DNA of 62,378 nt, taken from a virus (lineage: Duplodnaviria; Caudoviricetes). The position numbers and the translations under genes were made by a program. Each line of letters starts with the position of its first letter. Positions within the stretch are counted from its first letter, which is position 1. The notes under the pieces were generated by a model. The model did no database searches, was not told the DNA's origin, and worked only from the letters and a program-made list of their open reading frames with translations. The stretch covers positions 1-62,378 of IMG/VR virus record IMGVR_UViG_3300030106_004741. One strand, 5' to 3'. Shown piece after piece: positions 6,344 through 61,317 of this stretch.

Positions 6344-7957
6344 ATGAATCAATCAAACGGGTACTCCCCTAAAGAACTATTCTTCGGTTCTAATGGAAGG
6401 GAAAAATTAATTAAAGGAATAGACAAGTTATCTAATGCGGTAAAAAGCACACTCGGACCACGAGGTAATACAGTGCTTATAGAATCTCCTGAACACACAC
6501 ATGGAATTACTGTAACTAAAGACGGTGTAACCGTAGCAAAGTCTGTTTCGTTAATAGACCCTGTTGAAAACCTCGCGGTTAGAATGATGAAAGAAGCGGC
6601 AGAAAGAACAGCCACTAGTGCGGGTGACGGAACAACTACGGCAATAGTATTGACTGAGGCAGTGGTAAAAGCTGCATTAAACACTATACAACCTAAAGAC
6701 AATAAAACGGAAATACTTCGTGAGTTGGTAGAGGGTACTAAAGAGGTGGTTAAGTATTTAAAGAAAGAGGGAGTAAAGATTGCACCATCTACTTTAAAAG
6801 ATGTAGCAACTATATCTGCTAACAACGATTCTTTTATTGGAGATATTATATCTAAAGTTCATAATGAGGTTGGGGAGAATGGAATTGTAACGGTAGAAAA
6901 ATCTCAAACAGCAGAAACTTATTATGAAACCACAAAGGGAGTTAAGATAGATAGAGGATATACAAGTCCTTTATTTGTTAATAACCAAAAGAAAGATGAA
7001 TGTATATTAGAAGATGTGCATATATTAGTTTCAGATGCAGAAATAAATAATATATTAAACATTGAAAATATATTAAAACCAATTATCCAAGAGGGGAAAA
7101 AACTTTTACTTATATGTCCTTGTTCAAATAATGTAATAAATACATTGTCCGCTAATGTAATGAAAAGGAGTTTAAAAGTATGTAATATACCCCCACCCTC
7201 TTTTGGATATAAACAACACGAATTAATGCAAGACATAGCTCTTTCTGTAGGTGCAACATATTTCTCTGAAAAGACGGGAGATGATTTGAGCATCATAAAC
7301 TTCTCCGATTTAGGGAGGGCGTCCAAGGTGATAGTTGGTCGGGACTCTACAATCATTCTCTCGTCAGAGAAAACTGAAGAACATCACAATCTTATAGACA
7401 CTCGTGTTTCTGAATTAAAAGAAGCCCATAAGATGGCAACTAAAAAGGGTGATAAAGAATTTATACTATCTCGTATTGCATCTTTAACAGGAGGGATAGG
7501 AGTTATATATGTGGGAGGAAACACTGACCTTGAGCAAAAGGAATTATATGATAGGGTAGATGATGCTGTATGTGCAGTTCGTTCTGCACTTGTAGAAGGA
7601 ATTTTACCAGGAGCAGGGTTAGCTTTATATAATTTTACATATAACATGAAGGAATATGAGAGTTATTCTGAGTCTAAAAAAATTGCTTACGCAATTTTAA
7701 CTAAAGCTCTTAATGCTCCTTTAAACCAAATACTTAAAAATGCAGGACTTAAATCTGAAAAGATTTATAATACAGGATTTAAAAAGGGAATAGGATATGA
7801 TGTGAAAAATGGAGAAATTGGAAATCTTATTAAATTAGGGGTAATAGACCCTGTAAAGGTAACTAGAACAGCATTGCAAAATGCTGTGTCAGTTGCAGTA
7901 ACTATTTTAAGTACGGATGCTATTATTACAATGGCACGTTCATACGAAACTAACTAA
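6344..7957 (+). CDS. groEL: Chaperonin GroEL (Cpn60)
   Basis: TLGPRG, TKDGVTVAK, GDGTTTA and GVIDP motifs; 537 aa. Confidence 0.97.
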   Translation: MNQSNGYSPKELFFGSNGREKLIKGIDKLSNAVKSTLGPRGNTVLIESPEHTHGITVTKDGVTVAKSVSLIDPVENLAVRMMKEAAERTATSAGDGTTTAIVLTEAVVKAALNTIQPKDNKTEILRELVEGTKEVVKYLKKEGVKIAPSTLKDVATISANNDSFIGDIISKVHNEVGENGIVTVEKSQTAETYYETTKGVKIDRGYTSPLFVNNQKKDECILEDVHILVSDAEINNILNIENILKPIIQEGKKLLLICPCSNNVINTLSANVMKRSLKVCNIPPPSFGYKQHELMQDIALSVGATYFSEKTGDDLSIINFSDLGRASKVIVGRDSTIILSSEKTEEHHNLIDTRVSELKEAHKMATKKGDKEFILSRIASLTGGIGVIYVGGNTDLEQKELYDRVDDAVCAVRSALVEGILPGAGLALYNFTYNMKEYESYSESKKIAYAILTKALNAPLNQILKNAGLKSEKIYNTGFKKGIGYDVKNGEIGNLIKLGVIDPVKVTRTALQNAVSVAVTILSTDAIITMARSYETN

Positions 7958-10432: not shown

Positions 10433-11104
10433 ATGGCTTATCAAAAAATATACGGAATACCGACTCGTACTATGTGGCTCACTCCTAGTGATTATGCACT
10501 TATACCATGTCCTTCTGATTTTATATATCAGGGAAAGACCACAGATGATTCGGGAGACCCAACTGTTTTGTATGACTCAACGGTAAACTTTAAAGTTCTA
10601 GGGGTGACGGAGGGGTGTGTTATTTTGATTAAAAAACCCTCCACAGGACAGGGTTGGGCAGTAGCTAGAACTATTAACGATGTCAAAAAAGCGGACACGG
10701 GGAATTTAGGATTGAATGCAATCGTTAGTTACCCAAATTATGTAACGGGTAAAGCTGTGAGTACAGACTATGCTATTTATCGACCTCCTACAAAACCCTG
10801 TATAGTTACTCCACGAACTTTAAGAGAATTAGGACTTGGGACCTATGCAGATAAACCTATCACCTTCCGAGATGCAGGAGGAGATTCCACAGATGTTTAT
10901 ACTGGTGCAGGTGTGCAAGCAACGTGGATAACGGGACTTAGTTTCATAGAAGGTCAAGGGGTGTCGAATATATGGCCTTTTCAAATATCACAATGGGTGG
11001 CAACATCAACTGATAAGGGGGTTGCGACTGATTGGGAAGCATTAGTTAACGCGGGGGGAGTTCCTGACGCTGCGGGTTGTCAATTATTTATGGGAAGTTG
11101 GTAA
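10433..11104 (+). CDS. Putative virion decoration protein, paralog 1 (MAYQK)
   Basis: Beta-rich; shares its N-terminus, SDYA.IP.P, YAIY and AGGD with 11135. Confidence 0.7.
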   Translation: MAYQKIYGIPTRTMWLTPSDYALIPCPSDFIYQGKTTDDSGDPTVLYDSTVNFKVLGVTEGCVILIKKPSTGQGWAVARTINDVKKADTGNLGLNAIVSYPNYVTGKAVSTDYAIYRPPTKPCIVTPRTLRELGLGTYADKPITFRDAGGDSTDVYTGAGVQATWITGLSFIEGQGVSNIWPFQISQWVATSTDKGVATDWEALVNAGGVPDAAGCQLFMGSW

Positions 11105-11134
11105 AAATAAAAAATTAAAAAAGTTTAAAAAAAA

Positions 11135-11740
11135 ATGGCTTATCAAAAAAATTTAGGAGTAGGAACAAGATATTTAAATATATTTGTATCCGATTATGCA
11201 GATATTCCCAATCCAGGGGCTTTTATGTTAAATGGGGTTACCACTACCGTAAGTCCAGCTCTTGCCCCTTATGGCACACTTCCTACAGGTCAAGCAGTAG
11301 GGCAAACATTATTAATCGATACGGGTGTTAATTTTGAAAGTGATACGGCTGTTAAAGTTGGTGACATTGTTTATGCTATTGAGAGTGTAGGTTTATGGGA
11401 GCGTGGGGCAGGAACAGTGTTAGGGGTTTCAGCATCTACACTGGTAGTAAGTACTAATCCTGTATCAACGCCTTTTAATATAGATTTTGCAATAGGTACA
11501 GGAATTAAATATGCAATTTATGATGGTTCGATGAATGAACCGTGTATGCTTTATGATGGATTAATGTCGGATAAGTTTGCAAATTGGATGGTGACAACGG
11601 CAGGAGGAGATACATTGGAAATTCCTAGTGGAGGTCCAGGTGCTGTCGCTGACCCTGTTGTTAATTGCCAAGTAAAAAAACTATGGCTACCTAAAAACTA
11701 CACAGATTTTAATCCTACACGAAGTTACGGAGTATGGTAA
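11135..11740 (+). CDS. Putative virion decoration protein, paralog 2 (MAYQK)
   Basis: Paralog of 10433. Confidence 0.7.
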   Translation: MAYQKNLGVGTRYLNIFVSDYADIPNPGAFMLNGVTTTVSPALAPYGTLPTGQAVGQTLLIDTGVNFESDTAVKVGDIVYAIESVGLWERGAGTVLGVSASTLVVSTNPVSTPFNIDFAIGTGIKYAIYDGSMNEPCMLYDGLMSDKFANWMVTTAGGDTLEIPSGGPGAVADPVVNCQVKKLWLPKNYTDFNPTRSYGVW

Positions 11741-11800: not shown

Positions 11801-11929
11801 ATGGCAAAAAAAGTATGGACCTTTACACCCACCAAAAAAAAGTCGCATCATCGACATGCAAAAAGCGGGACATCGTATAATAAGGGGTCTAAAAATTACA
11901 TTAAACAATATCGTGGACAAGGAAGATGA
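11801..11929 (+). CDS. Unannotated 42-aa basic peptide ending YRGQGR
   Basis: Manual translation; ATGA overlap with the next gene. Confidence 0.65.
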   Translation: MAKKVWTFTPTKKKSHHRHAKSGTSYNKGSKNYIKQYRGQGR

Positions 11930-12942
11930 GAGTATTATTAATTTTATTTTTATTTCCTTTATTGTCTTTTGGGCAATTTTTTAAGTACTCTACTGTGTAT
12001 ACTTCTTTTTCTATGGGGACATCTATGTCTGAAAGAGAAAATTATATTGCAGTAAATAGAGGTTATGAAGATGTTACAGAAATTAATCCTTACGATTATA
12101 ATTTAACTTTCGGAATCCGAAAAATAGCAAGATTTGATTATGAATATAAAGTTAAAACGTGGTACTACGGTACTGAACGAACTGTTTCAGACAATGTTAC
12201 TGTTGGGAATGCTAGTGGTTGGGAGTATCTCCTTAATTATTCTTTTATACGGAATCGTGGTGAAACATTTAATAATGCAGATTTTTGGTTACGTTACCTC
12301 GGCAATAACACGGTTACTAAGTTGCAATACAAAGATAACCAAAGGGTAAATTTAGAATACACTTCTTTTGACACTAGATTGCGTTTTACTAAAGGCCCGT
12401 GGGATTTTACTGCAGGAGTAATTGCAAGAAATCACCCTGTGTATGGGGTTAATCCTATTGAGGATTTTTGGACTCCAGGAGAAAGCACTTTTGTAGAGTT
12501 AGCGGCAGATTTTGGATATAGTAGAGAGTTTGTAAATGGACAATGGCATTGGTTTAGTGGGGAAGAACTATTAGCAACATCGAATGATGAGTTTTATAAA
12601 CATTATTTTGGAGATGCTGTTGCATCGTTTAATGAACAAGAATTAGAAAAATTAGGCACACAAAACGAAATAAGTGCCGTTTTAGGTGTTTCATACTATA
12701 AATGGACTCCTAAACTATGGATTCATATATGGTATAATTTACTACCTTTGCATTATGGACTAGATGATTATTCTTTTGAATATGGTGGAGAAAAATATGA
12801 TTGGGCAGAATGGGATTCAGGAATAGTGTTTGGTTCTCGCATCACAAAACACTTAGGGATATTTGTAGAAGGTACTCATCAAAAGTATTGGATGAAGCCT
12901 GTATATGAGTTAAAGTTTGGGTTTAACTATTTATTCTTTTAA
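11926..12942 (+). CDS. Putative outer-membrane beta-barrel protein with Sec signal
   Basis: Signal peptide ...LSFG/Q, alternating aromatic-rich beta strands, C-terminal YELKFGFNYLFF beta-signal. Confidence 0.7.
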   Translation: MRVLLILFLFPLLSFGQFFKYSTVYTSFSMGTSMSERENYIAVNRGYEDVTEINPYDYNLTFGIRKIARFDYEYKVKTWYYGTERTVSDNVTVGNASGWEYLLNYSFIRNRGETFNNADFWLRYLGNNTVTKLQYKDNQRVNLEYTSFDTRLRFTKGPWDFTAGVIARNHPVYGVNPIEDFWTPGESTFVELAADFGYSREFVNGQWHWFSGEELLATSNDEFYKHYFGDAVASFNEQELEKLGTQNEISAVLGVSYYKWTPKLWIHIWYNLLPLHYGLDDYSFEYGGEKYDWAEWDSGIVFGSRITKHLGIFVEGTHQKYWMKPVYELKFGFNYLFF

Positions 12943-12944
12943 GT

Positions 12945-13586
12945 ATGAGAAAATATATATTTATTTTATTTGTTTTATTAAGTTGGTTTGCAAAAGGACA
13001 AGAGTACAACAATAATTGTGCATCCTGTGTTGAAACGGGAGGTTTTTATTGTGGTGATGACGAATCAAATTGGACACAGTATTCTCCAAATGGATGTGTT
13101 CCAAATAATTGGCTTAATGATGGTTGGGAAGATTGTGTTGATGCTTCTGATGAAAATGGAGCTGAACCTACATCATTAGAAAGTTGTGCTATTGATATAG
13201 TGCCATGTGATACCGTGTATGTGGATGTGATAGAATATATAAATTTAACAGACACCGTTTATGTAGAGTTAATCGATACCATTATAGAAGTCCAGGTTTT
13301 TGAAGAAATTGATACTCTTTATGTATATGAAGATGTATTAGACACGATGTTTATAGATGTGATAGAATATGTAGAGATATTTGTTATAGACACTATTATT
13401 GAAACAGAATGGATGTATATAGAAGAGTATATTGATTGTGACACAGGATTACCGTGTAATACTCAAATAATAGAAATAATTAAAGATTCTAAAACTAGCT
13501 CTTTAATGTATAATTTAAAAGGACAGGTTATAAGAAAACCTGAAAGTATATATATTCAAAATGGCAAAGTGAAATGGCTCAAATAG
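12945..13586 (+). CDS. Secreted acidic protein with an LDL-receptor class A-like module and a T9SS-CTD-like C-terminus
   Basis: Signal ...AKG/Q; FYC...GCVPNNWLNDGWEDCVDASDE; DT(V/I/L) repeats; MYNLKGQ...IYIQNGK. Confidence 0.7.
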   Translation: MRKYIFILFVLLSWFAKGQEYNNNCASCVETGGFYCGDDESNWTQYSPNGCVPNNWLNDGWEDCVDASDENGAEPTSLESCAIDIVPCDTVYVDVIEYINLTDTVYVELIDTIIEVQVFEEIDTLYVYEDVLDTMFIDVIEYVEIFVIDTIIETEWMYIEEYIDCDTGLPCNTQIIEIIKDSKTSSLMYNLKGQVIRKPESIYIQNGKVKWLK

Positions 13587-13861
13587 GAGAAAACACAAAG
13601 GTTAGTACTGACTTAAAATTTATTATCAGTTTTGTAATAATGATAGTAGGGTTGGTGGGTACTTATTATAATCTTGTAGGACAAGTAAATGAATTAGAAC
13701 TTAAGGTAAATAAGTTCGATGGATATCCTAGTGCTAATGAGATAAACATGAAAAATGAACTGATACGACAAACAGTTTTATCCAACAAAGAAACATTAGA
13801 TGCTATAGAAAACAAGATAGATGTTATGGATGAAAGATTGTATCAAGTAATTCAAAAATAA
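13574..13861 (+). CDS. Single-TM protein with C-terminal coiled coil
   Basis: FIISFVIMIVGLVGTYY followed by a heptad pattern. Confidence 0.7.
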   Translation: MAQIGENTKVSTDLKFIISFVIMIVGLVGTYYNLVGQVNELELKVNKFDGYPSANEINMKNELIRQTVLSNKETLDAIENKIDVMDERLYQVIQK

Positions 13862-14223
13862 TGCGAGTTTTATTTTATTTATTATTATTCTTTACCACCC
13901 TGTGTATAGGGCAAGATTATATCCAAGAGGATAAGTTTGAGGAAGTGTTGAGTGAAGATATTGTAATAATTGAGTTTTATGCAGATTGGAACAAAGACAA
14001 TAAAATAGATTTAAAAGAATTTAAGGATGTGAAGTCTTATGTAGTAAATGTAGAAGACTGTCCCAATTTAACTAAAGAATACAAAATACTTTCTGTTCCT
14101 ACCCTAATTATTTTTAATAATAAAAAGGTGGTGGAAAAATATGAAGCTGATTTAACTTTTCAGTTATGTATAAAGGCAGCTAAAAAGAAAGTAGAAGAAT
14201 TAGTATTAAAGAAATTTATGTAA
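13861..14223 (+). CDS. Exported thioredoxin-fold protein lacking CxxC
   Basis: Signal ...CIG/Q; IIEFYADWNKDN in place of WCxxC; SVPTLIIF cis-Pro strand. Confidence 0.75.
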   Translation: MRVLFYLLLFFTTLCIGQDYIQEDKFEEVLSEDIVIIEFYADWNKDNKIDLKEFKDVKSYVVNVEDCPNLTKEYKILSVPTLIIFNNKKVVEKYEADLTFQLCIKAAKKKVEELVLKKFM

Positions 14224-14225
14224 GT

Positions 14226-14705
14226 ATGAAGTTGTCGAAAAATTTTTCTCTTTCGGAGTTTTTAAAATCTAATGTGGCTAAGCGTCACGGAATCTCTAAT
14301 TCTCCCGAAGAACATCATATTGAACAGATGAAGTTATTGTGTGAAAACACATTACAACCTATAAGAGATGGCATAGGTTCTATTGGTATTAATTCAGGAT
14401 TTAGGTCAAAAGAATTAAACAAAGCACTTGGTGGAGCTCATAAAATAAAAGATGGAGTTTATGTTGCTACAAGTCAACACTGTAAAGGACAAGCGGCAGA
14501 TTTAAAATTCAGAAACAAAGAAGGGAAGGTAGACAATAAGGTTATATGGGATTATGTTATAGAAGAAGGAGTTGAGTTCGACCAAATGATAAATGAATTT
14601 GATTTTGCATGGATACATATATCTTATAATCCTGAAGGAAATAGGTGTCAATTATTAGAGGCATATAAGGGTTCTAATGGAAAAACTAAATATAAAAAAG
14701 TATGA
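14226..14705 (+). CDS. Endolysin, peptidase M15 family (Zn)
   Basis: NSGFR, SQH, AAD and WIHIS motifs. Confidence 0.88.
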   Translation: MKLSKNFSLSEFLKSNVAKRHGISNSPEEHHIEQMKLLCENTLQPIRDGIGSIGINSGFRSKELNKALGGAHKIKDGVYVATSQHCKGQAADLKFRNKEGKVDNKVIWDYVIEEGVEFDQMINEFDFAWIHISYNPEGNRCQLLEAYKGSNGKTKYKKV

Positions 14706-15076
14706 TAAAAGGATTTATAAAATCACTAATTGGAGATGCATCTACTATTATTGATGAAGTGGTTACATCTAAAGAAGAAAAAATAGCACTACGAAATGCT
14801 ATGAAAAAAATGTTATTAGAATCAGAAGTAGAGTTGCAAAAAAATGTGACAGAAAGGTGGAAGGCAGATATGCAATCCGACTCGTGGTTAAGTAAAAATG
14901 TAAGACCCCTTACATTAGCGTTTCTATTAGTTTCTACAGTTTTACTCATATTTATAGATGCGGGTTTTATTAACTTTGAAGTCAAAAATTCATGGGTAGA
15001 TTTATTACAGCTTGTCATGATTTCTGTAGTGGGGGCGTATTTTGGAGGTCGTTCACTTGAAAAAATTAAAAAATAA
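14702..15076 (+). CDS. Holin (GTA/3TM-type)
   Basis: RWKADM..DSWLSKNVRP, TM helices, YFGGRSLEK; adjacent to the endolysin. Confidence 0.82.
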   Translation: MIKGFIKSLIGDASTIIDEVVTSKEEKIALRNAMKKMLLESEVELQKNVTERWKADMQSDSWLSKNVRPLTLAFLLVSTVLLIFIDAGFINFEVKNSWVDLLQLVMISVVGAYFGGRSLEKIKK

Positions 15077-15770: not shown

Positions 15771-16022
15771 ATGGGTAAAATCAGCACATACAACCAAATA
15801 GTTACACCTGCGTTAACGGACTTAGTTATAGGTACGGATATTAATGATAGTAATATAACTAAAAATTTTAGTGTTCAACAAATAATATCAATGTTGGGAG
15901 GTGGTAGTACGGGTGCAATAGTCATCTTACCTGAATATGGTAGTGATGGCGCGGCAGGTTCAGCAGGATTGGTTGCAGGTCAATTTTATCGTACAGGAGG
16001 AGATGTGAAAGTTAAATTATAA
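15771..16022 (+). CDS. Virion fibre/decoration protein with shared N-terminal module 1
   Basis: MGKISTY...TDLVIGTD...TKNFSV. Confidence 0.7.
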   Translation: MGKISTYNQIVTPALTDLVIGTDINDSNITKNFSVQQIISMLGGGSTGAIVILPEYGSDGAAGSAGLVAGQFYRTGGDVKVKL

Positions 16023-16025
16023 TGC

Positions 16026-16583
16026 ATGGGAAAGATAAGTACATACGATGTAAACTCTATTCCTGTGGGAACAGATATGTTAATTGGAACAGATGTTCAA
16101 TCCACTCCACCTAATCAAACTAAAAATTTTACGGTTAATCAATTAGCTGAGTATGCCCAAGGAGCATATATAACACAAAGAATTTCTATAAGTGGGGCTA
16201 ATGTGGTTTTGTCAAGTACAAATGCTATTACCCTAATAGAAGCTGCCCCTTCAGGTAAGGCAATTTTTCCTATTCAAATACTAGTAGATAACAACCCTTA
16301 TAGTGGGCCTCAATTTACCACAAGTGCCACTTCCACTTTAACTATTGGATACATTCAATCGGTAAGTGGGATTGCGGGAGATGGGCGCTTTGTAGATAGT
16401 TCAATTACAGCACATGCCCTATTCAATTCAACAGTGGGTAGAGTTTTATGGTATCGTCCACCTACTAATCAAGAAATTTTACCTGTAGGCAACGAGAGGC
16501 CATTGGGTTTTAGAACTACCAATATAACGGGAGGGGGTGATAATTTAAATATACACTTTACTATTACTTATAAGATTATTTAA
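16026..16583 (+). CDS. Virion fibre/decoration protein with shared N-terminal module 2
   Basis: MGKISTY...TDMLIGTD...TKNFTV, then a beta-sandwich-like C-terminus. Confidence 0.7.
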   Translation: MGKISTYDVNSIPVGTDMLIGTDVQSTPPNQTKNFTVNQLAEYAQGAYITQRISISGANVVLSSTNAITLIEAAPSGKAIFPIQILVDNNPYSGPQFTTSATSTLTIGYIQSVSGIAGDGRFVDSSITAHALFNSTVGRVLWYRPPTNQEILPVGNERPLGFRTTNITGGGDNLNIHFTITYKII

Positions 16584-16584
16584 A

Positions 16585-17187
16585 ATGGCAAAGATAGAGT
16601 CTTTTGAGATTGTAAACCCTGTGGAGGGAACAGATATAATGGTGGGGACAGATGTTAGTGAAGTTAATCGACCTGTTAAAAATTTTACAATAGACTCACT
16701 TTCTCCCTTACTGAATGGAGAGTGGTATGATTTTAAATACATAATGCCTAGAGAGGAAATTGAAAACCTTAATAACCCTGCGGGAGGAGGTAATGATGTA
16801 ACAACCTTTTTGCCCGCAAAACCAGGGGGGATGTGGGTGATAGATTTAAACACTTGGTATTGGAAAACAATATATAAAGATACTCCATGGCAACTTACAG
16901 GTTTTTCCTTTGGGTTTTTTTTTCCTTATTTTTATGGAACAGTAGTGAGTGGAGGTTCTTATTTTTACTATGCCAATGCTCAAAATGTAAATTATTCCAA
17001 ACTTGTGACTAACACCCAAAATGCCTTATGGAGATATAATGATAGTTATGATGCTAGCCAAAACAACACACTAGATATGACAAATACGAGTTTTGGAATG
17101 AGGTGGGCTTTTTTTGGAGAGGTTACAGGAGGAGGAGGGCATTGGGAGTTTGGATTTAGATATAGGTTTACAGAAATACAAACCTAA
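16585..17187 (+). CDS. Virion fibre/decoration protein with shared N-terminal module 3
   Basis: MAKIESF...TDIMVGTD...VKNFTI, then an aromatic-rich C-terminus. Confidence 0.7.
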   Translation: MAKIESFEIVNPVEGTDIMVGTDVSEVNRPVKNFTIDSLSPLLNGEWYDFKYIMPREEIENLNNPAGGGNDVTTFLPAKPGGMWVIDLNTWYWKTIYKDTPWQLTGFSFGFFFPYFYGTVVSGGSYFYYANAQNVNYSKLVTNTQNALWRYNDSYDASQNNTLDMTNTSFGMRWAFFGEVTGGGGHWEFGFRYRFTEIQT

Positions 17188-17214: not shown

Positions 17215-17433
17215 ATGGATATAAGAAAAATTTCTGTAGGACCTGATTATAAATCAAGTTCTATGCATTATATTGTAGGTCAACCTGTTTTAAATGGAGC
17301 TTACACTATACATTTAATAAAACAAGAAAAGGATATGGTAAAGATTTGGATAGAACAAGATAATGAAATTATTTTGTGGAAATCTTTTAATCACAACATG
17401 CCTATTGCAACTGAATATAATATCAATTTCTAA
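17215..17433 (+). CDS. Hypothetical protein (IRKISVGPDYK)
   Basis: 72 aa, coupled to the next gene. Confidence 0.75.
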   Translation: MDIRKISVGPDYKSSSMHYIVGQPVLNGAYTIHLIKQEKDMVKIWIEQDNEIILWKSFNHNMPIATEYNINF

Positions 17434-18014
17434 TGCAGTCGCCTTTTTATTTTATTGTTACACCTTTGTTAAACAAAAGGTATGACAACTCTAAGGTTAT
17501 TGGAGGTAAAGAAATTATTGTAAGTACATCAGATGAAGACCATAGGTTTTCCAATAGACACGCAAAAGTAATAAGTGTTCCATTAGGGTATGAGGGAGAT
17601 ATAGAAAAAGGAGATACTTTGTTGGTTCATCATAATGTTTTTAAGTTTTATCATGACATGAGGGGCAGACAAAGAAGTGGTAGAAGTTTTTTAAAAGATG
17701 ATTTATTTTTTGTAGATGAAGAACAGTTTTTTATGTATAAAAAACATAATTATGGGTTTTTGAAAACCAAATGGAATGCAATAAATCGATATTGTTTTGT
17801 TGAACCTGTAGATGTAGAAGATAGTATTATAAAAAAACCTTTACAACATGAACCATTAGTAGGTATTATGAGATATCCTAATAAATACTTAAAAAGCAAA
17901 GGAGTAAAAGAGGGGGATAAAGTTTCTTTTCAACCAGATAGTGAGTATGAATTTACGGTGGAAGGGAAAAAAATGTATCGTATATATGACCATCAAATTA
18001 CTATAAAATTATGA
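17433..18014 (+). CDS. GroES-like protein, apparently two tandem GroES-like folds
   Basis: AKVISVP...IEKGDTLLV and GIMRY...GVKEGDKVSF...GKKMYRI. Confidence 0.65.
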   Translation: MQSPFYFIVTPLLNKRYDNSKVIGGKEIIVSTSDEDHRFSNRHAKVISVPLGYEGDIEKGDTLLVHHNVFKFYHDMRGRQRSGRSFLKDDLFFVDEEQFFMYKKHNYGFLKTKWNAINRYCFVEPVDVEDSIIKKPLQHEPLVGIMRYPNKYLKSKGVKEGDKVSFQPDSEYEFTVEGKKMYRIYDHQITIKL

Positions 18015-60528: not shown

Positions 60529-60933
60529 TTAAATCTCGGCATGAAAATAACAATGTCCATGTGTTTCGAGTTGTTTTAAAACTTGTTTACCAAATCTTAA
60601 ATCGGCAAACTCGTGTAACAAATATCTCAAATCTTGTTCTATAAAGGTTTTATTCTCTATACTTTTATTAAGATATTCCAATAACATTTTATCATTGTAA
60701 CCATTGTTTTCCTTAAAGAACTTCTCTAAAACTTTTAAAACATCGTGTCCTATGTTTTCTTTAATCACTTTTATCTCGTCCTTTACTGTCTTTATTGCCT
60801 CTTCATCTTCTCCGAACCAATACTCGATTTCAGATGGTTCACTTTCCATTGCCCCGAACCGTACTGCACAATCCGAACTTTGCACTGCAAACCAAAACTT
60901 ACCTTCAATATCTCCTCTATAATACCTTCCCAT
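60529..60933 (-). CDS. Early hypothetical protein (MGRYY.GDIEGKFWF)
   Basis: 134-aa ORF. Confidence 0.75.
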   Translation of the reverse strand: MGRYYRGDIEGKFWFAVQSSDCAVRFGAMESEPSEIEYWFGEDEEAIKTVKDEIKVIKENIGHDVLKVLEKFFKENNGYNDKMLLEYLNKSIENKTFIEQDLRYLLHEFADLRFGKQVLKQLETHGHCYFHAEI

Positions 60934-61081
60934 AATTTTCTGTTTTTTGTGAGGACACTTCCACTTCCTCGTTATTATCTATTGCACTAAATTTCCACCC
61001 ACTACTCCTATTACAAAGACTAGAGGTTGCACAAGAACTTAAAAATAAAACTCCTGTGACTATTACTAAATACTTTTTCAT
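60917..61081 (-). CDS. Unannotated 54-aa lipoprotein MKKYLVIVTGVLFLSSC...
   Basis: Manual translation; basic N-region, hydrophobic core, LSSC lipobox. Confidence 0.7.
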   Translation of the reverse strand: MKKYLVIVTGVLFLSSCATSSLCNRSSGWKFSAIDNNEEVEVSSQKTENYGKVL

Positions 61082-61086
61082 TGTTT

Positions 61087-61317
61087 CTATTTTGTTAAAT
61101 CGTTAAACATATCTATCATTCCAATACCAAACCACACTCCTACACAACTACCTATAAAAATACTAATCGGTATAAATGATTGACAAAGAGTGGTTATACC
61201 ATAATACAAACCTGCACATAAAGACACTATCGTTAAACTGATTAAGAATAGAACTTTTAATCTATCCATTGTTATCCCAAATATGTACTTTAATAATTCT
61301 TTAAATTTAATTTTCAT
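61087..61317 (-). CDS. Small two-TM membrane protein
   Basis: Two hydrophobic helices. Confidence 0.7.
   Translation of the reverse strand: MKIKFKELLKYIFGITMDRLKVLFLISLTIVSLCAGLYYGITTLCQSFIPISIFIGSCVGVWFGIGMIDMFNDLTK

Follow-up and report, generated by a model that had tools for sequence, protein, structure and literature searches.

A virus-restricted gene module joined to endolysin and holin genes, proposed as a lysis-cassette component in phages of marine Flavobacteriia

The window analysed here is the whole 62,378-nucleotide stretch of viral DNA. It contains a run of six open reading frames, designated A to F (Table 1), in which successive genes are separated by +2, -13, -1, +2 and -4 nt (A/B, B/C, C/D, D/E and E/F, respectively); the short or overlapping junctions mean that the six genes are tightly coupled. 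A sequence-only reading had described this run as an envelope and lysis cassette of six coupled genes: all are present where it placed them, the observation is confirmed, and the interpretation built upon it is in part supported. The arrangement recurs across many viral contigs and is therefore not a product of chance. Three of the products (A, B and D) carry the Sec signals previously noted to end in G/Q (LSFG-Q, AKG-Q and CIG-Q, respectively). The glutamine at position +1 is invariant among aligned homologues (34 for A, 34 for B and 32 for D), in agreement with the Q-rule as set out for Bacteroidetes (PMC5837995, PMC10653852). Proteins A, B, C and D are all acidic, with pI values of 4.05-5.19.

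Table 1. Genes and sequence features of the cassette (positions in the window; aa, residue numbers in the protein).
Feature	Residues or length	Position (nt)	Strand	Basis or remark
Cassette, six ORFs A-F		11926-15076	+	ORF list
A, predicted outer-membrane beta-barrel	338 aa	11926-12942	+	ORF and AlphaFold2 model
A, signal peptide	aa 1-16	11926-11973	+	mature N-terminus Gln17
A, conserved segment	aa 67-97			low model confidence, yet strongly conserved
A, insert	aa 172-244			about 70 aa, helix-containing, conserved
B, acidic secreted protein	213 aa	12945-13586	+	ORF and domain/composition
B, signal peptide	aa 1-18	12945-12998	+	
B, Cys-rich LDLa-like module	aa 20-85	13002-13199	+	Ldl_recept_a
B, acidic V/I/Y/D/E/T repeat spacer	aa 86-172	13200-13460	+	
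B, conserved tail (about 40 aa)	aa 173-213	13461-13583	+	
C, predicted type II inner-membrane protein	95 aa	13574-13861	+	ORF and hydropathy
C, TM helix	about aa 15-37	13616-13684	+	within hydrophobic stretch
D, periplasmic thioredoxin fold without redox cysteines	120 aa	13861-14223	+	ORF and PF00085
D, signal peptide	aa 1-17	(ORF 13861-14223)	+	mature N-terminus Gln18
D, WNKDN	aa 43-47	13987-14001	+	replaces WCxxC
E, M15-family peptidoglycan peptidase (endolysin)	159 aa	14226-14705	+	ORF and PF08291, phrog_894
F, holin	124 aa	14702-15076	+	ORF and phrog_3427

No Pfam, NCBIfam or PHROG family was found for A, and none of 30 members of its family gave a significant Pfam match. An AlphaFold2 model (30-row alignment; pLDDT 76.7, pTM 0.71) contains 12 long strands, with pLDDT below 50 at residues 68-94. 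Foldseek returned 20 matches at E<=0.001; among the matches listed, all are outer-membrane barrels. The closest structural matches are 12-stranded, namely KdgM (VIA Z 12.7), the EstA translocator (12.6) and NanC (12.2); further matches include Tsx (10.9), LpxR (10.3), OMPLA (7.4) and PorV (7.0, rank 40). A is of the same fold class and size as the 12-stranded outer-membrane barrels (KdgM/NanC porins, autotransporter translocators, Tsx, LpxR, FapF), which it matches at Z 9.7-12.7 over 162-195 aligned residues with 6-12% sequence identity. The model and these matches bear out the suspected beta-barrel with a terminal phenylalanine (the C-terminus reads FGFNYLFF), and A is accordingly predicted to be an outer-membrane barrel of about 12 strands with a Sec signal. 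Unlike the known 12-stranded barrels it is virus-restricted, and neither its insert nor its conserved low-confidence segment has a counterpart among them. Gln17 and residues within R65-E84 are invariant in a 34-sequence alignment.

The composition of B is as first described: an acidic protein (40 D+E against 8 K+R when mature; pI 4.05) with an LDLa-like module (Ldl_recept_a, E 7e-4, 20.1 bits; under the 24.1 cut-off) and a tail that is conserved in the homologue alignment. The spacer contains 23 D+E and no K+R in 87 aa, and its pLDDT is below 50 (block means about 27-38); that of the tail is about 87. Variation in the spacer causes B to range from 148 to 310 aa among homologues. The further claim that B is cargo of the type IX secretion system (T9SS) is not supported. 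B has no match to Por_Secre_tail or TIGR04183 at E<=1, nor is either found at E<=0.1 when the window is translated in all six frames. Profile-profile comparison of the tail with 20 genuine C-terminal sorting domains (CTDs) aligned 17 columns at 12% probability, and its model shows one helix and four short strands within some 40 residues, as against the seven-strand sandwich given for the CTD (PMC11285876). By every test run B is not T9SS cargo.

C was taken for a single-TM coiled-coil protein, and this stands: there is one hydrophobic stretch (about aa 9-38, Kyte-Doolittle) and, by direct reading, the final ~30 residues follow an a/d heptad pattern. Across 33 sequences K15, E56, K60 and R65 are invariant, the last three forming an E-x-x-x-K-x-x-x-x-R motif; C contains no cysteine. 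Fourteen of the 33 members match phrog_20984 (unknown function) and two match a holin/anti-holin PHROG (E 1.2e-4). Compared with spanin families C gave no significant match, the best being an Rz-like spanin PHROG at E 0.25. From these features C appears to be a type II (N-in) single-pass inner-membrane protein of i-spanin-like architecture, with its C-terminal heptad helix in the periplasm. Its size is comparable to that of the T4 i-spanin (117 aa; PMC6139136). The periplasmic part, of ~55-60 residues, is too short to cross the periplasm alone; a spanin-like model thus needs D, and perhaps B, as a bridge.

D matches Thioredoxin PF00085 above cut-off (E 4.1e-9, 36.8 bits versus 23.5) and TIGR01068 under that family's cut-off (E 3.3e-10). 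Seven residues are invariant in 32 sequences (Q18, W43, N44, N47, P80, T81 and F119), so that W-N-x-x-N, already recognised as the replacement for WCxxC, is a property of the family; the cis-Pro P80-T81 loop is kept, as is a Phe at or beside the C-terminus. The signal-peptide cysteine is not conserved, hence D is not a lipoprotein. Because the fold lacks redox cysteines, we propose that D is a binding module. Periplasmic thioredoxin folds without cysteines exist, for example F-plasmid TraF, which like D is exported, lacks CxxC and presumably binds rather than acts in redox chemistry. One D homologue, at locus L082, weakly matches the F-type transfer family PF09673 (E 0.0069, under cut-off). 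There is no demonstrated homology with TraF-type folds beyond the fold itself, and D is set apart from them by its W-N-x-x-N, its Phe at or beside the C-terminus and its constant pairing with C.

The assignment of the last two genes to an M15 endolysin and a holin is upheld by family matches. E matches Peptidase_M15_3 PF08291 (E 1.6e-11) and the endolysin family phrog_894 (E 2.9e-35); F matches the holin family phrog_3427 (E 1.3e-29) and GTA_holin_3TM (E 4.7e-5, 24.3 bits, just under the 24.8 cut-off), and its homologues are annotated as holins in Vibrio, Nonlabens and Pseudoalteromonas phages.

Co-occurrence was measured around D and around A. In 80 D-centred viral loci, C is present in 79 and A in 70; in eight of the ten loci without A the sequence begins less than 2.5 kb before D, and 7 kb or more of upstream sequence is available for L152 and L168 alone. 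Among 52 A-centred loci in which the sequence continues for at least 4.5 kb beyond A, 48 have both C and D, and a C-like ORF lies directly 5' of D in 65 of 65 loci. Four loci (L016, L017, L028 and L029) have A and B without C and D within 6 kb. B is missing from 19 of the 80 in which A, C and D are all present. Of the four-protein envelope set, then, A, C and D stand as a virus-only core; B is dispensable and does not belong to the unit except as an option.

Pairwise-identity matrices from 28 loci correlate at 0.74 (A-D), 0.75 (C-D) and 0.64 (A-C), and more weakly for A-B (0.36, B being interposed) and A-E (0.37). Such correlations could stem from shared descent and linkage alone. In loci L007-L011, identity to the window is 80-85% for A and 83-93% for C, as against 42-49% for E and 28-31% for F. 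These comparisons suggest that A, C and D are inherited as a module. Among the six proteins A shows the greatest conservation, with a mean pairwise identity of 0.70 versus 0.61 for the endolysin.

A homologues fall into 214 clusters at 50% and 330 at 90% identity; among 120 of the latter listed, there is no Pfam domain and the sole functional label is 'hypothetical protein'. A search of 185,579 species genomes found three loci, each on a MAG contig that is phage-like or of doubtful binning, and in the ESM Atlas, among the matches listed, 100% are viral. A is virus-restricted. No cultured phage record with A or C was found, which makes the module a new, testable candidate.

Of the 86 distinct loci whose flank downstream of D reaches 3 kb or more, 64 have an E- or F-family gene no further than 3 kb from D and 22 have none; the envelope genes are thus tied to lysis genes, as had been proposed. 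These lysis genes belong to several families. The ORF that follows D, called in 107 distinct loci, encodes an M15 endolysin in 48, a phrog_33083 endolysin in two, a phrog_3427 holin in three and an Amidase_2/PG_binding endolysin in one (L082); elsewhere it is a 57-aa protein (12 loci), a nuclease (9) or an uncharacterised protein (8). Gene order also varies (holin-A-C-D; A-C-D-holin-endolysin). In the close relative MW202828.1 (terminase 76.8% identical) a single 207-aa ORF occupies the position of the module upstream of the M15 endolysin; this positional analogue begins with a TM helix and contains beta repeats, rich in DT, that resemble the B spacer. Against a lysis role for A, C and D is the fact that genes adjoining lysis cassettes can be unrelated morons, of which lambda bor is an example.

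The window was searched for conventional spanins. Using our own regular expression, no lipobox ORF was found in the cassette and a single one in the window on either strand (60917-61081, minus strand). It lies 46 kb from the cassette, next to a gene for a multi-pass membrane protein, not a coiled-coil type II protein. The initial impression that no lipoprotein o-spanin is evident is therefore sustained, and no canonical spanin pair was recognised in this CheckV-complete genome. Croceibacter and Bacteroides phages are classed as spanin-less in section 15 of PMC6139136. The same source raises the possibility of an outer-membrane protein in this role: 'an OMP could act as an o-spanin'.

On balance, A, C and D, with B as an option, may constitute a spanin-like module for outer-membrane disruption in which a barrel takes the place of the lipoprotein; we regard this as a real possibility, at slightly less than even chances. 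C would be made late together with endolysin and holin, and would sit in the inner membrane with its short coiled coil in the periplasm. A would be exported by Sec and inserted in the outer membrane; D would bridge the two in the periplasm, where B may join the link if present. After triggering of the holin and clearance of the peptidoglycan by the endolysin, the tether or the barrel would destabilise the outer membrane and free the virions. The contacts among A, B, C and D, action at lysis and the mode of membrane breakage are all inferred, and the single trans-envelope complex of four proteins envisaged in the sequence-only reading would likewise be conjectural. The two C-D loci without A (L152, L168) and the four A-B loci without C-D count against this spanin-like reading, as do the 22 loci with no E- or F-family gene near D, the lack of a significant spanin-family match for C and the holin/anti-holin hits of two C homologues.

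The likeness is greatest to two-component spanins (lambda Rz/Rz1, T4 PseT.3/PseT.2). These lie in or beside the endolysin-holin cassette, pair a small type II inner-membrane subunit bearing a periplasmic coiled coil (the architecture predicted for C) with one outer-membrane subunit (as A would be), and are needed in diderm hosts only. Their outer-membrane subunit, however, is a small lipoprotein, whereas here it would be an integral barrel with an SPI signal, accompanied always by a soluble thioredoxin-fold protein and often by an acidic fourth. Moreover, sequence similarity to spanin families and a periplasmic cysteine in C are both missing, and the cassette has no embedded or overlapping spanin-type gene architecture. 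We know of no precedent for an integral barrel as outer-membrane anchor for membrane fusion. Phages without Rz/Rz1 are described as reaching the same last step by other solutions: the u-spanin T1 gp11, a lipoprotein with a C-terminal TM helix (PMC6139136), and gp28 of phage phiKT, an amphipathic cationic peptide (bioRxiv 10.1101/515445). As characterised there, both are single small proteins; the present module has three or four acidic proteins, none a lipoprotein.

It is also conceivable, if unlikely, that the module remodels the surface of the infected cell. A, with B on or beside it, would mask or block a receptor, keep progeny off debris or exclude other phages, and C and D would help in assembly or anchoring. 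Phage outer-membrane proteins with such roles are known (lambda Lom, lambda Bor, T5 Llp); the module is frequently found 3' of tail-fibre-like or large structural genes; and B has both the hypervariable spacer expected of an exposed protein and an N-module that is 58-81% identical to modules of 12 longer proteins, seven of them with the T9SS sorting domain PF18962 (PF00057 in five), suggesting extracellular life. Yet A, as the most conserved of the six proteins, would be unusual for a surface protein in an arms race, and B is absent from 19 of 80 loci that keep A, C and D. This view leaves unexplained both the linkage to lysis genes and the near-obligate pairing of an outer-membrane barrel with a coiled coil in the inner membrane, and translational coupling makes the genes part of the lysis operon, not a moron standing apart.

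A T9SS-linked display system is a doubtful proposition. Here A would be a phage-made outer-membrane partner like PorV or PorP/SprF that takes or anchors secreted proteins bearing a short B-type tail or a full CTD, and through the module the phage would commandeer or circumvent type IX secretion in the host. Cargo with a type A C-terminal sorting domain shares with the cassette its Bacteroidota context and Q-rule signal peptides, CTD-bearing proteins contain the N-module of B, and a YNL-G-Q-hydrophobic strand is common to the B tail and real CTDs (including the P0270 and P0272 sequences). At L082, the A homologue is preceded, at a distance of 1 nt, by a 994-aa protein that bears a genuine Por_Secre_tail (E 3.2e-13, 50.2 bits); at L168 a 1288-aa secreted protein, CTD-like at its end by eye, lies about 1 kb from D. 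The tail is specific, our own pattern matching 123 of 5516 ORFs in the loci (120 B and three other secreted ORFs after D), and the 12-strand class of A includes polypeptide translocators (autotransporters, FapF). Against this, B fails all CTD tests, its tail is found in no protein of greater length, and about 20 loci with A, C and D lack both B and any B-like tail. No homology of A to PorP/SprF was seen by hhalign, which aligned signal peptides only (5.4% probability), as it did over the signal-peptide region in negative controls, and the similarity to PorV is that of barrels in general.

Control of lysis timing is improbable. C and D, which adjoin holin or endolysin genes, would be antiholin-like or a periplasmic sensor for lysis inhibition, and A an unrelated porin or uptake gene along for the ride; the holin/anti-holin matches of two C homologues, the specific porins (KdgM, NanC, Tsx) among the best matches of A, and the coiled-coil type II membrane proteins that adjoin the same endolysin-holin pair without A in Nonlabens phage P12024L and a Vibrio phage all point this way, but there is no homology to known antiholins, and the retention of A with them in 70 of 80 loci, covarying more than with neighbours, is left unexplained. 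Least credible, and in our view very improbable, is an enzymatic role for A, as a barrel lipase or lipid A deacylase of the OMPLA, PagL or LpxR kind that would chemically weaken the outer membrane at lysis: LpxR and OMPLA, which need calcium, are among its matches, H170, S250, H267 and E100 are conserved throughout its divergent family and B and D contain calcium-type motifs, but A lacks, on direct reading, the conserved H-x-S motif of the OMPLA/PagL type, and enzyme barrels score no better against it than non-enzymatic 12-strand barrels.

We therefore propose A, C and D, with B optional, as a lysis-cassette module of marine Flavobacteriia phages: an undescribed gene set fused to the endolysin-holin genes in a marine Flavobacteria-type phage. 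If the spanin-like reading is true, then the module may give such phages their means of breaking through the outer membrane.

The window is a complete virus genome from IMG/VR (62,378 bp; CheckV 100%). The terminase shares 46% identity with its counterparts in Flavobacterium (elemo-type) podophages and 76.8% with that of an uncultured freshwater-spring podovirus; the 87 matching terminase records include Cellulophaga, Tenacibaculum and Maribacter phages. Together with a GC-content of approximately 0.32 and the rule that Gln follows the signal peptide, these matches indicate a host among the Flavobacteriia. The sequence-only reading had described six tightly coupled genes (here A to F) ending in an M15 endolysin and a holin; this layout is accurate, and HMM matches identify both lysis genes. 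A scan for promoters and terminators gave counts no higher than those in shuffled sequence, the promoters of Bacteroidota lying outside the models of the scan. Small ORFs similar to the one that overlaps the start of A occur in related loci (e.g., locus L012). Three ORFs flanking the cassette have in common an N-terminus of the MGKISTY/MAKIESF type; these and the two MAYQK ORFs are, by appearance, exchangeable fibre or adaptor proteins, and none has a PHROG match.

Coordinates of the cassette and of other features in the window and in related loci (L-numbers)
Feature	Record	Position	Strand	Remarks
GroEL, phage-encoded	window	6344-7957	+	phrog_5725, E 1.2e-129
MAYQK... ORF	window	10433-11740	+	paralogue of 15771-17187
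Small ORF	window	11801-11929	+	42 aa, very basic, ends YRGQGR; 4-nt overlap with A; phrog_17967 (E 2.5e-4), unknown function
Cassette A-F	window	11926-15076	+	six packed ORFs; junctions +2, -13, -1, +2, -4 nt
A	window	11926-12942	+	predicted outer-membrane barrel
B	window	12945-13586	+	acidic secreted protein
C	window	13574-13861	+	type II inner-membrane protein
D	window	13861-14223	+	cysteine-less predicted thioredoxin fold
E	window	14226-14705	+	endolysin (Peptidase M15)
F	window	14702-15076	+	holin (phrog_3427)
MAYQK... ORF	window	15771-17187	+	paralogue of 10433-11740
GroES-like co-chaperonin	window	17433-18014	+	phrog_13932, E 8.3e-26
Lipobox ORF	window	60917-61081	-	54 aa; MKKYLVIVTGVLFLSSC followed by A...
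Multi-pass membrane ORF	window	61087-61317	-	76 aa
Secreted protein	L082	3003-5987		994 aa
Secreted protein	L168	8482-12348		1288 aa
TM-plus-coiled-coil protein	L115	2654-2920		Nonlabens phage P12024L gp13
TM-plus-coiled-coil protein	L116	3505-3846		Vibrio phage 1.238.A gp24
Two-TM protein	L019	5791-6003		
Two-TM protein	L027	8663-8875		
Two-TM protein	L147	8159-8461		
Extra ORF	L150	10389-10808		139 aa
Single ORF	L196	5012-5635		207 aa

A (338 aa) carries a cleavable Sec (SPI) signal, with a Gln at +1 that is invariant in the family alignment. Its AF2 model, built on a 30-row alignment, is a barrel of 12 long strands (pLDDT 76.7, pTM 0.71). Structure comparison (VIA) places the model closest to KdgM (Z 12.7, 162 residues aligned, rmsd 4.2), followed by further 12-stranded outer-membrane barrels: the EstA translocator (Z 12.6), NanC (Z 12.2), Tsx, LpxR and FapF. 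Foldseek also places A among outer-membrane barrels; PorV reaches a Z of only 7.0. The conserved C-terminus, ...FGFNYL(I/F)F, is an aromatic beta-signal. Residues 67-97 form the most conserved segment (R65 to E84 largely invariant) yet are modelled below pLDDT 50, and residues 172-244 form an insert of approximately 70 aa that contains a helix. Searches with Pfam, NCBIfam and PHROG models find nothing in A or in 30 members of its family. Judged by sequence and model, A qualifies as a putative outer-membrane beta-barrel protein of the BAM-substrate type. Kinship with PorP/SprF was considered and rejected: Pfam finds no match to PF11751 in A, and hhalign against five PorP/SprF proteins of the genome G001 aligns signal peptides only (5.4% probability), the negative controls being likewise confined to that region.

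C is a 95-aa type II membrane protein with a single hydrophobic stretch (approximately residues 9-38) and, on direct reading, an a/d heptad pattern across the C-terminal 30 or so residues, a short periplasmic helix. This architecture of N-terminal TM segment and periplasmic helix is kept in 33 sequences; the ESM Atlas offers only leads below 0.9 to named families (DUF7365, DUF2730). D (120 aa) is exported and matches the thioredoxin fold (PF00085) at 36.8 bits, above the cut-off of 23.5. All 32 aligned sequences keep the cis-Pro loop (P80-T81) and a near-terminal Phe, and all have W-N-x-x-N in place of WCxxC, with Cys at neither position. The predicted fold of D is that of a thioredoxin lacking the redox-active CxxC. 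A beta-barrel with terminal Phe, a single-TM coiled-coil protein and a redox-dead thioredoxin had all been proposed from the sequence alone, and all three descriptions are borne out.

The module is abundant in marine viromes: IMG/VR yielded no fewer than 435 D relatives (80 kept) and 97 A relatives (80 kept). A forms 214 clusters at 50% identity among 1.84 billion representatives; at 90% identity it forms 330 clusters, many of them from marine surveys, the longest contig measuring 94 kb. In the 120 A clusters listed of the 330 there is no Pfam domain, and the sole functional label is 'hypothetical protein'. Among 185,579 prokaryote species (one genome each) A was found on only three contigs, one phage-like (in a Flavobacteriales MAG) and two in an implausibly assigned archaeal MAG. 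Neither A (at E<=0.01) nor C occurs in a set of 50,697 phage records, cultured or deposited; in this set D has one weak match, to an unannotated faecal contig, and the 9-kb DNA has no megablast match.

The distribution of the genes across related loci defines the conserved unit. By tblastn, 77 of the 80 A-centred loci have B adjoining A, and of the 76 pairs measured 67 are separated by 1-4 nt; of the 52 A-centred loci that extend 4.5 kb or more downstream, 48 contain C and D and four lack them. A C-like ORF lies directly upstream of D in every one of 65 loci. According to profile HMMs, the 80 D-centred loci comprise 51 with all four genes, 19 with A, C and D, seven with C and D, two with B, C and D, and one with D alone. 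In eight of the ten that have no A, the locus ends within 2.5 kb on the upstream side of D; A is genuinely missing within 7 kb in two (L152 and L168). These counts make A, C and D the core and B an accessory. Pairwise-identity matrices for 28 loci show correlations of 0.64-0.75 among A, C and D, and lower values (0.36-0.37) with B, which lies among them, or with their neighbour E. Such correlations would fit A, C and D being inherited together for a joint function, but common descent by itself can yield them too. The four-gene envelope cassette first proposed was right in spirit, and its neighbourhood is indeed co-conserved; the unit has to be re-centred on A, C and D, with B optional. We conclude that A-C-D is an envelope module of phages that is genuine, abundant and hitherto undescribed.

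B (213 aa, pI 4.05) begins with a Cys-rich module (residues 20-85, pLDDT of approximately 80). Against Ldl_recept_a (PF00057) B scores 20.1 bits, the cut-off being 24.1. An LDLa repeat is marked by six Cys and a D-x-S-D-E calcium cage. Within the module D59, D63, D69 and E70 are invariant and the cage D...D-C-x-D-x-x-D-E is kept; on direct reading Asn replaces Cys in W-x-C-D-G, and the Foldseek rows for megalin and VLDLR repeats are all at E>1. Similar modules, 58-81% identical, occur in 12 longer proteins, seven with Por_Secre_tail and five with Ldl_recept_a. The spacer that follows (residues 86-172), modelled as disordered, contains 23 acidic and no basic residues; its repeat number varies, and B homologues accordingly range from 148 to 310 aa. 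The last 40 or so residues are conserved and modelled as one helix and four short strands (pLDDT of approximately 87). A fold search with the B model gave a best Z of 2.6, with six of 48,161 chains at Z>=2 (VIA), and Foldseek returned nothing at E<=0.001. The tail pattern is specific, since 120 of the 123 matches among 5516 ORFs in the loci are B; in three loci with A, C and D but no B, another secreted protein with a B-type tail is positioned after D. Two longer proteins were candidates for carrying the B tail, and neither scored. Complex prediction for A (17-338) and B (19-213) from paired 34-row alignments gave a score of 0.00 and a mark of 0.32, figures that point neither way.

B had been read as an LDLa/T9SS-type cargo with a C-terminal sorting domain (CTD). 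T9SS type A CTDs are approximately 70-100 aa long, with an Ig-like fold. The tail of B, at only some 40 aa, is too short for the 7-strand sandwich described in PMC11285876. CTD models from Pfam and NCBIfam (PF18962, TIGR04183) find no match in B at E<=1 and none in a six-frame search of the window at E<=0.1; the 994-aa protein of L082, as a positive control, reaches 50.2 bits. Compared by hhalign with 20 genuine CTDs from a Flavobacteriales MAG, the tail aligned over 17 columns at 12% probability. HMMs, profile comparison and modelled tail all speak against B as type A cargo, and that part of the earlier proposal is abandoned. A T9SS flavour around the module does appear real, given the B-like N-modules in CTD proteins and the L082 cargo. 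The latter, a secreted protein with Por_Secre_tail, ends 1 nt before an A homologue; a secreted protein of L168 lies beside the module, its CTD judged by eye only. Both contigs are phage-like, which suggests phage-encoded T9SS cargo.

The gene following D was examined in 107 distinct loci. It is an M15 endolysin in 48, a member of a second endolysin family in two, a holin in three and an Amidase_2/PG-binding endolysin in one (L082); in the rest it encodes small proteins, a nuclease or unknowns. Of the 86 distinct loci that continue for 3 kb or more beyond D, 64 have a member of the E or F family within 3 kb of it, against approximately 1 in 8, by our rough estimate, for a random gene that close in a 40-60-kb genome. 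Alternative orders include holin-A-C-D and A-C-D-holin-endolysin. In the closest deposited relative, MW202828.1 (L196), A to D are missing and a single ORF lies upstream of the M15 endolysin instead. Its product combines a TM helix at the N-terminus, beta repeats rich in DT that recall the spacer of B, and a beta-rich C-terminus; it matches nothing in PHROG and may be a one-protein analogue of A-D.

Other small genes accompany these lysis regions. In L115 and L116, both from cultured phages, a TM-plus-coiled-coil protein of 88-113 aa sits beside the same endolysin-holin pair, with A and D missing, a hint that C-like proteins occur more widely as lysis accessories. Many related phages (L019, L027 and L147 among them) encode a two-TM protein of approximately 70 aa (MNIFKDNNDWNEKAIVGF...GISGVEKFAKK) between B and C or before A. 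This candidate for a second holin or antiholin has no counterpart in the window (tblastn E>1). In L150, where the order is A-C-D-holin-endolysin, the extra ORF directly after the endolysin has a Q-rule signal peptide, is beta-rich, ends ...FRFGLLYKL, and has the appearance of a small outer-membrane barrel.

The subunits of two-component spanins bind through their C-termini and are needed for disruption of the outer membrane. C matches the architecture of an i-spanin: a type II inner-membrane protein with an N-terminal TMD and a periplasmic coiled coil. The o-spanin, by contrast, is a small outer-membrane lipoprotein whose gene lies within, overlapping or next to that of the i-spanin, and none such is evident in the cassette, as the sequence-only reading had observed. 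A lipobox pattern of our own, which atypical Bacteroidota lipoboxes could escape, finds no ORF of at least 25 aa in any cassette frame. D as lipoprotein o-spanin was rejected because most homologues lack the signal-peptide Cys. C matches the PHROG Rz-like spanin only at E 0.25, its 33 members yield no spanin family at E<=0.01, and no canonical spanin pair was found in the complete genome. The genome's sole lipobox ORF is on the minus strand, in the early region, and is directly preceded by the 76-aa membrane ORF; PHROG matches neither. They were rejected as a spanin pair, the neighbour being multi-pass and devoid of a periplasmic coil, and may be a small exclusion-type pair. We found no description of a barrel-type spanin or an A-C-D module in the literature searched. 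In the main spanin survey, a spanin was not found in 91 of 677 genomes, including those of Croceibacter (Flavobacteriia) and Bacteroides phages, and section 15 raises the idea that 'an OMP could act as an o-spanin' (PMC6139136).

With parts list, targeting signals, co-occurrence and lysis linkage established, the most economical reading, which we favor tentatively, is that A, C and D with an optional B constitute a spanin-like module for disruption of the outer membrane. As to contacts, timing and membrane rupture, we infer that C would be the inner-membrane subunit, A the outer-membrane subunit and D, the redox-dead thioredoxin fold, a periplasmic adaptor, with B an optional acidic spacer of calcium type; the module would build up alongside holin and endolysin and, with the peptidoglycan removed, would act at the outer membrane. 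It is possible, if doubtful, that this is the first member of a new class of lysis machinery in which a phage outer-membrane barrel rather than a lipoprotein is the outer-membrane effector, connected through D to C, with or without B. A bolder variant would make the barrel a gated conduit bringing acidic, calcium-binding B-type proteins to the surface, lysis and display being one device.

Alternatively, the module may remodel the cell surface or mediate exclusion; with E or F so often close to D we consider this unlikely. A T9SS-linked display device would accord with the CTD protein next to A in L082, and seems rather improbable with B itself devoid of a CTD. That C and D control the timing of lysis, with A as passenger, suits the position of C and D beside holin or endolysin genes; A belongs to the core, and we give this version little credence. 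The reading of A as an outer-membrane lipase of OMPLA/PagL type is highly improbable: direct reading of A shows that a conserved catalytic H-x-S motif is absent. The fold match to OMPLA reaches Z 7.4 (VIA).

Little is understood so far about the way in which Bacteroidota phages cross the outer membrane. The A-C-D module is a concrete candidate for filling this gap in their lysis, given the various endolysin types that accompany it and the absence of A and C from the cultured and deposited phage records searched. If this is true, then A would be the outer-membrane protein acting as o-spanin that the spanin literature has raised, the module would be widespread in uncultured phages of marine Flavobacteriia, and the difficulty of finding spanins in Bacteroidota phages would be explained. 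Confirmation would add a third protein architecture for outer-membrane disruption, improve the annotation of lysis genes in marine and gut viromes, and supply a phage-made outer-membrane barrel with defined partners for the study of envelope-spanning assemblies. Should the module prove to be a surface remodeller instead, A would still represent an unrecognised and very common family of phage-encoded outer-membrane proteins.
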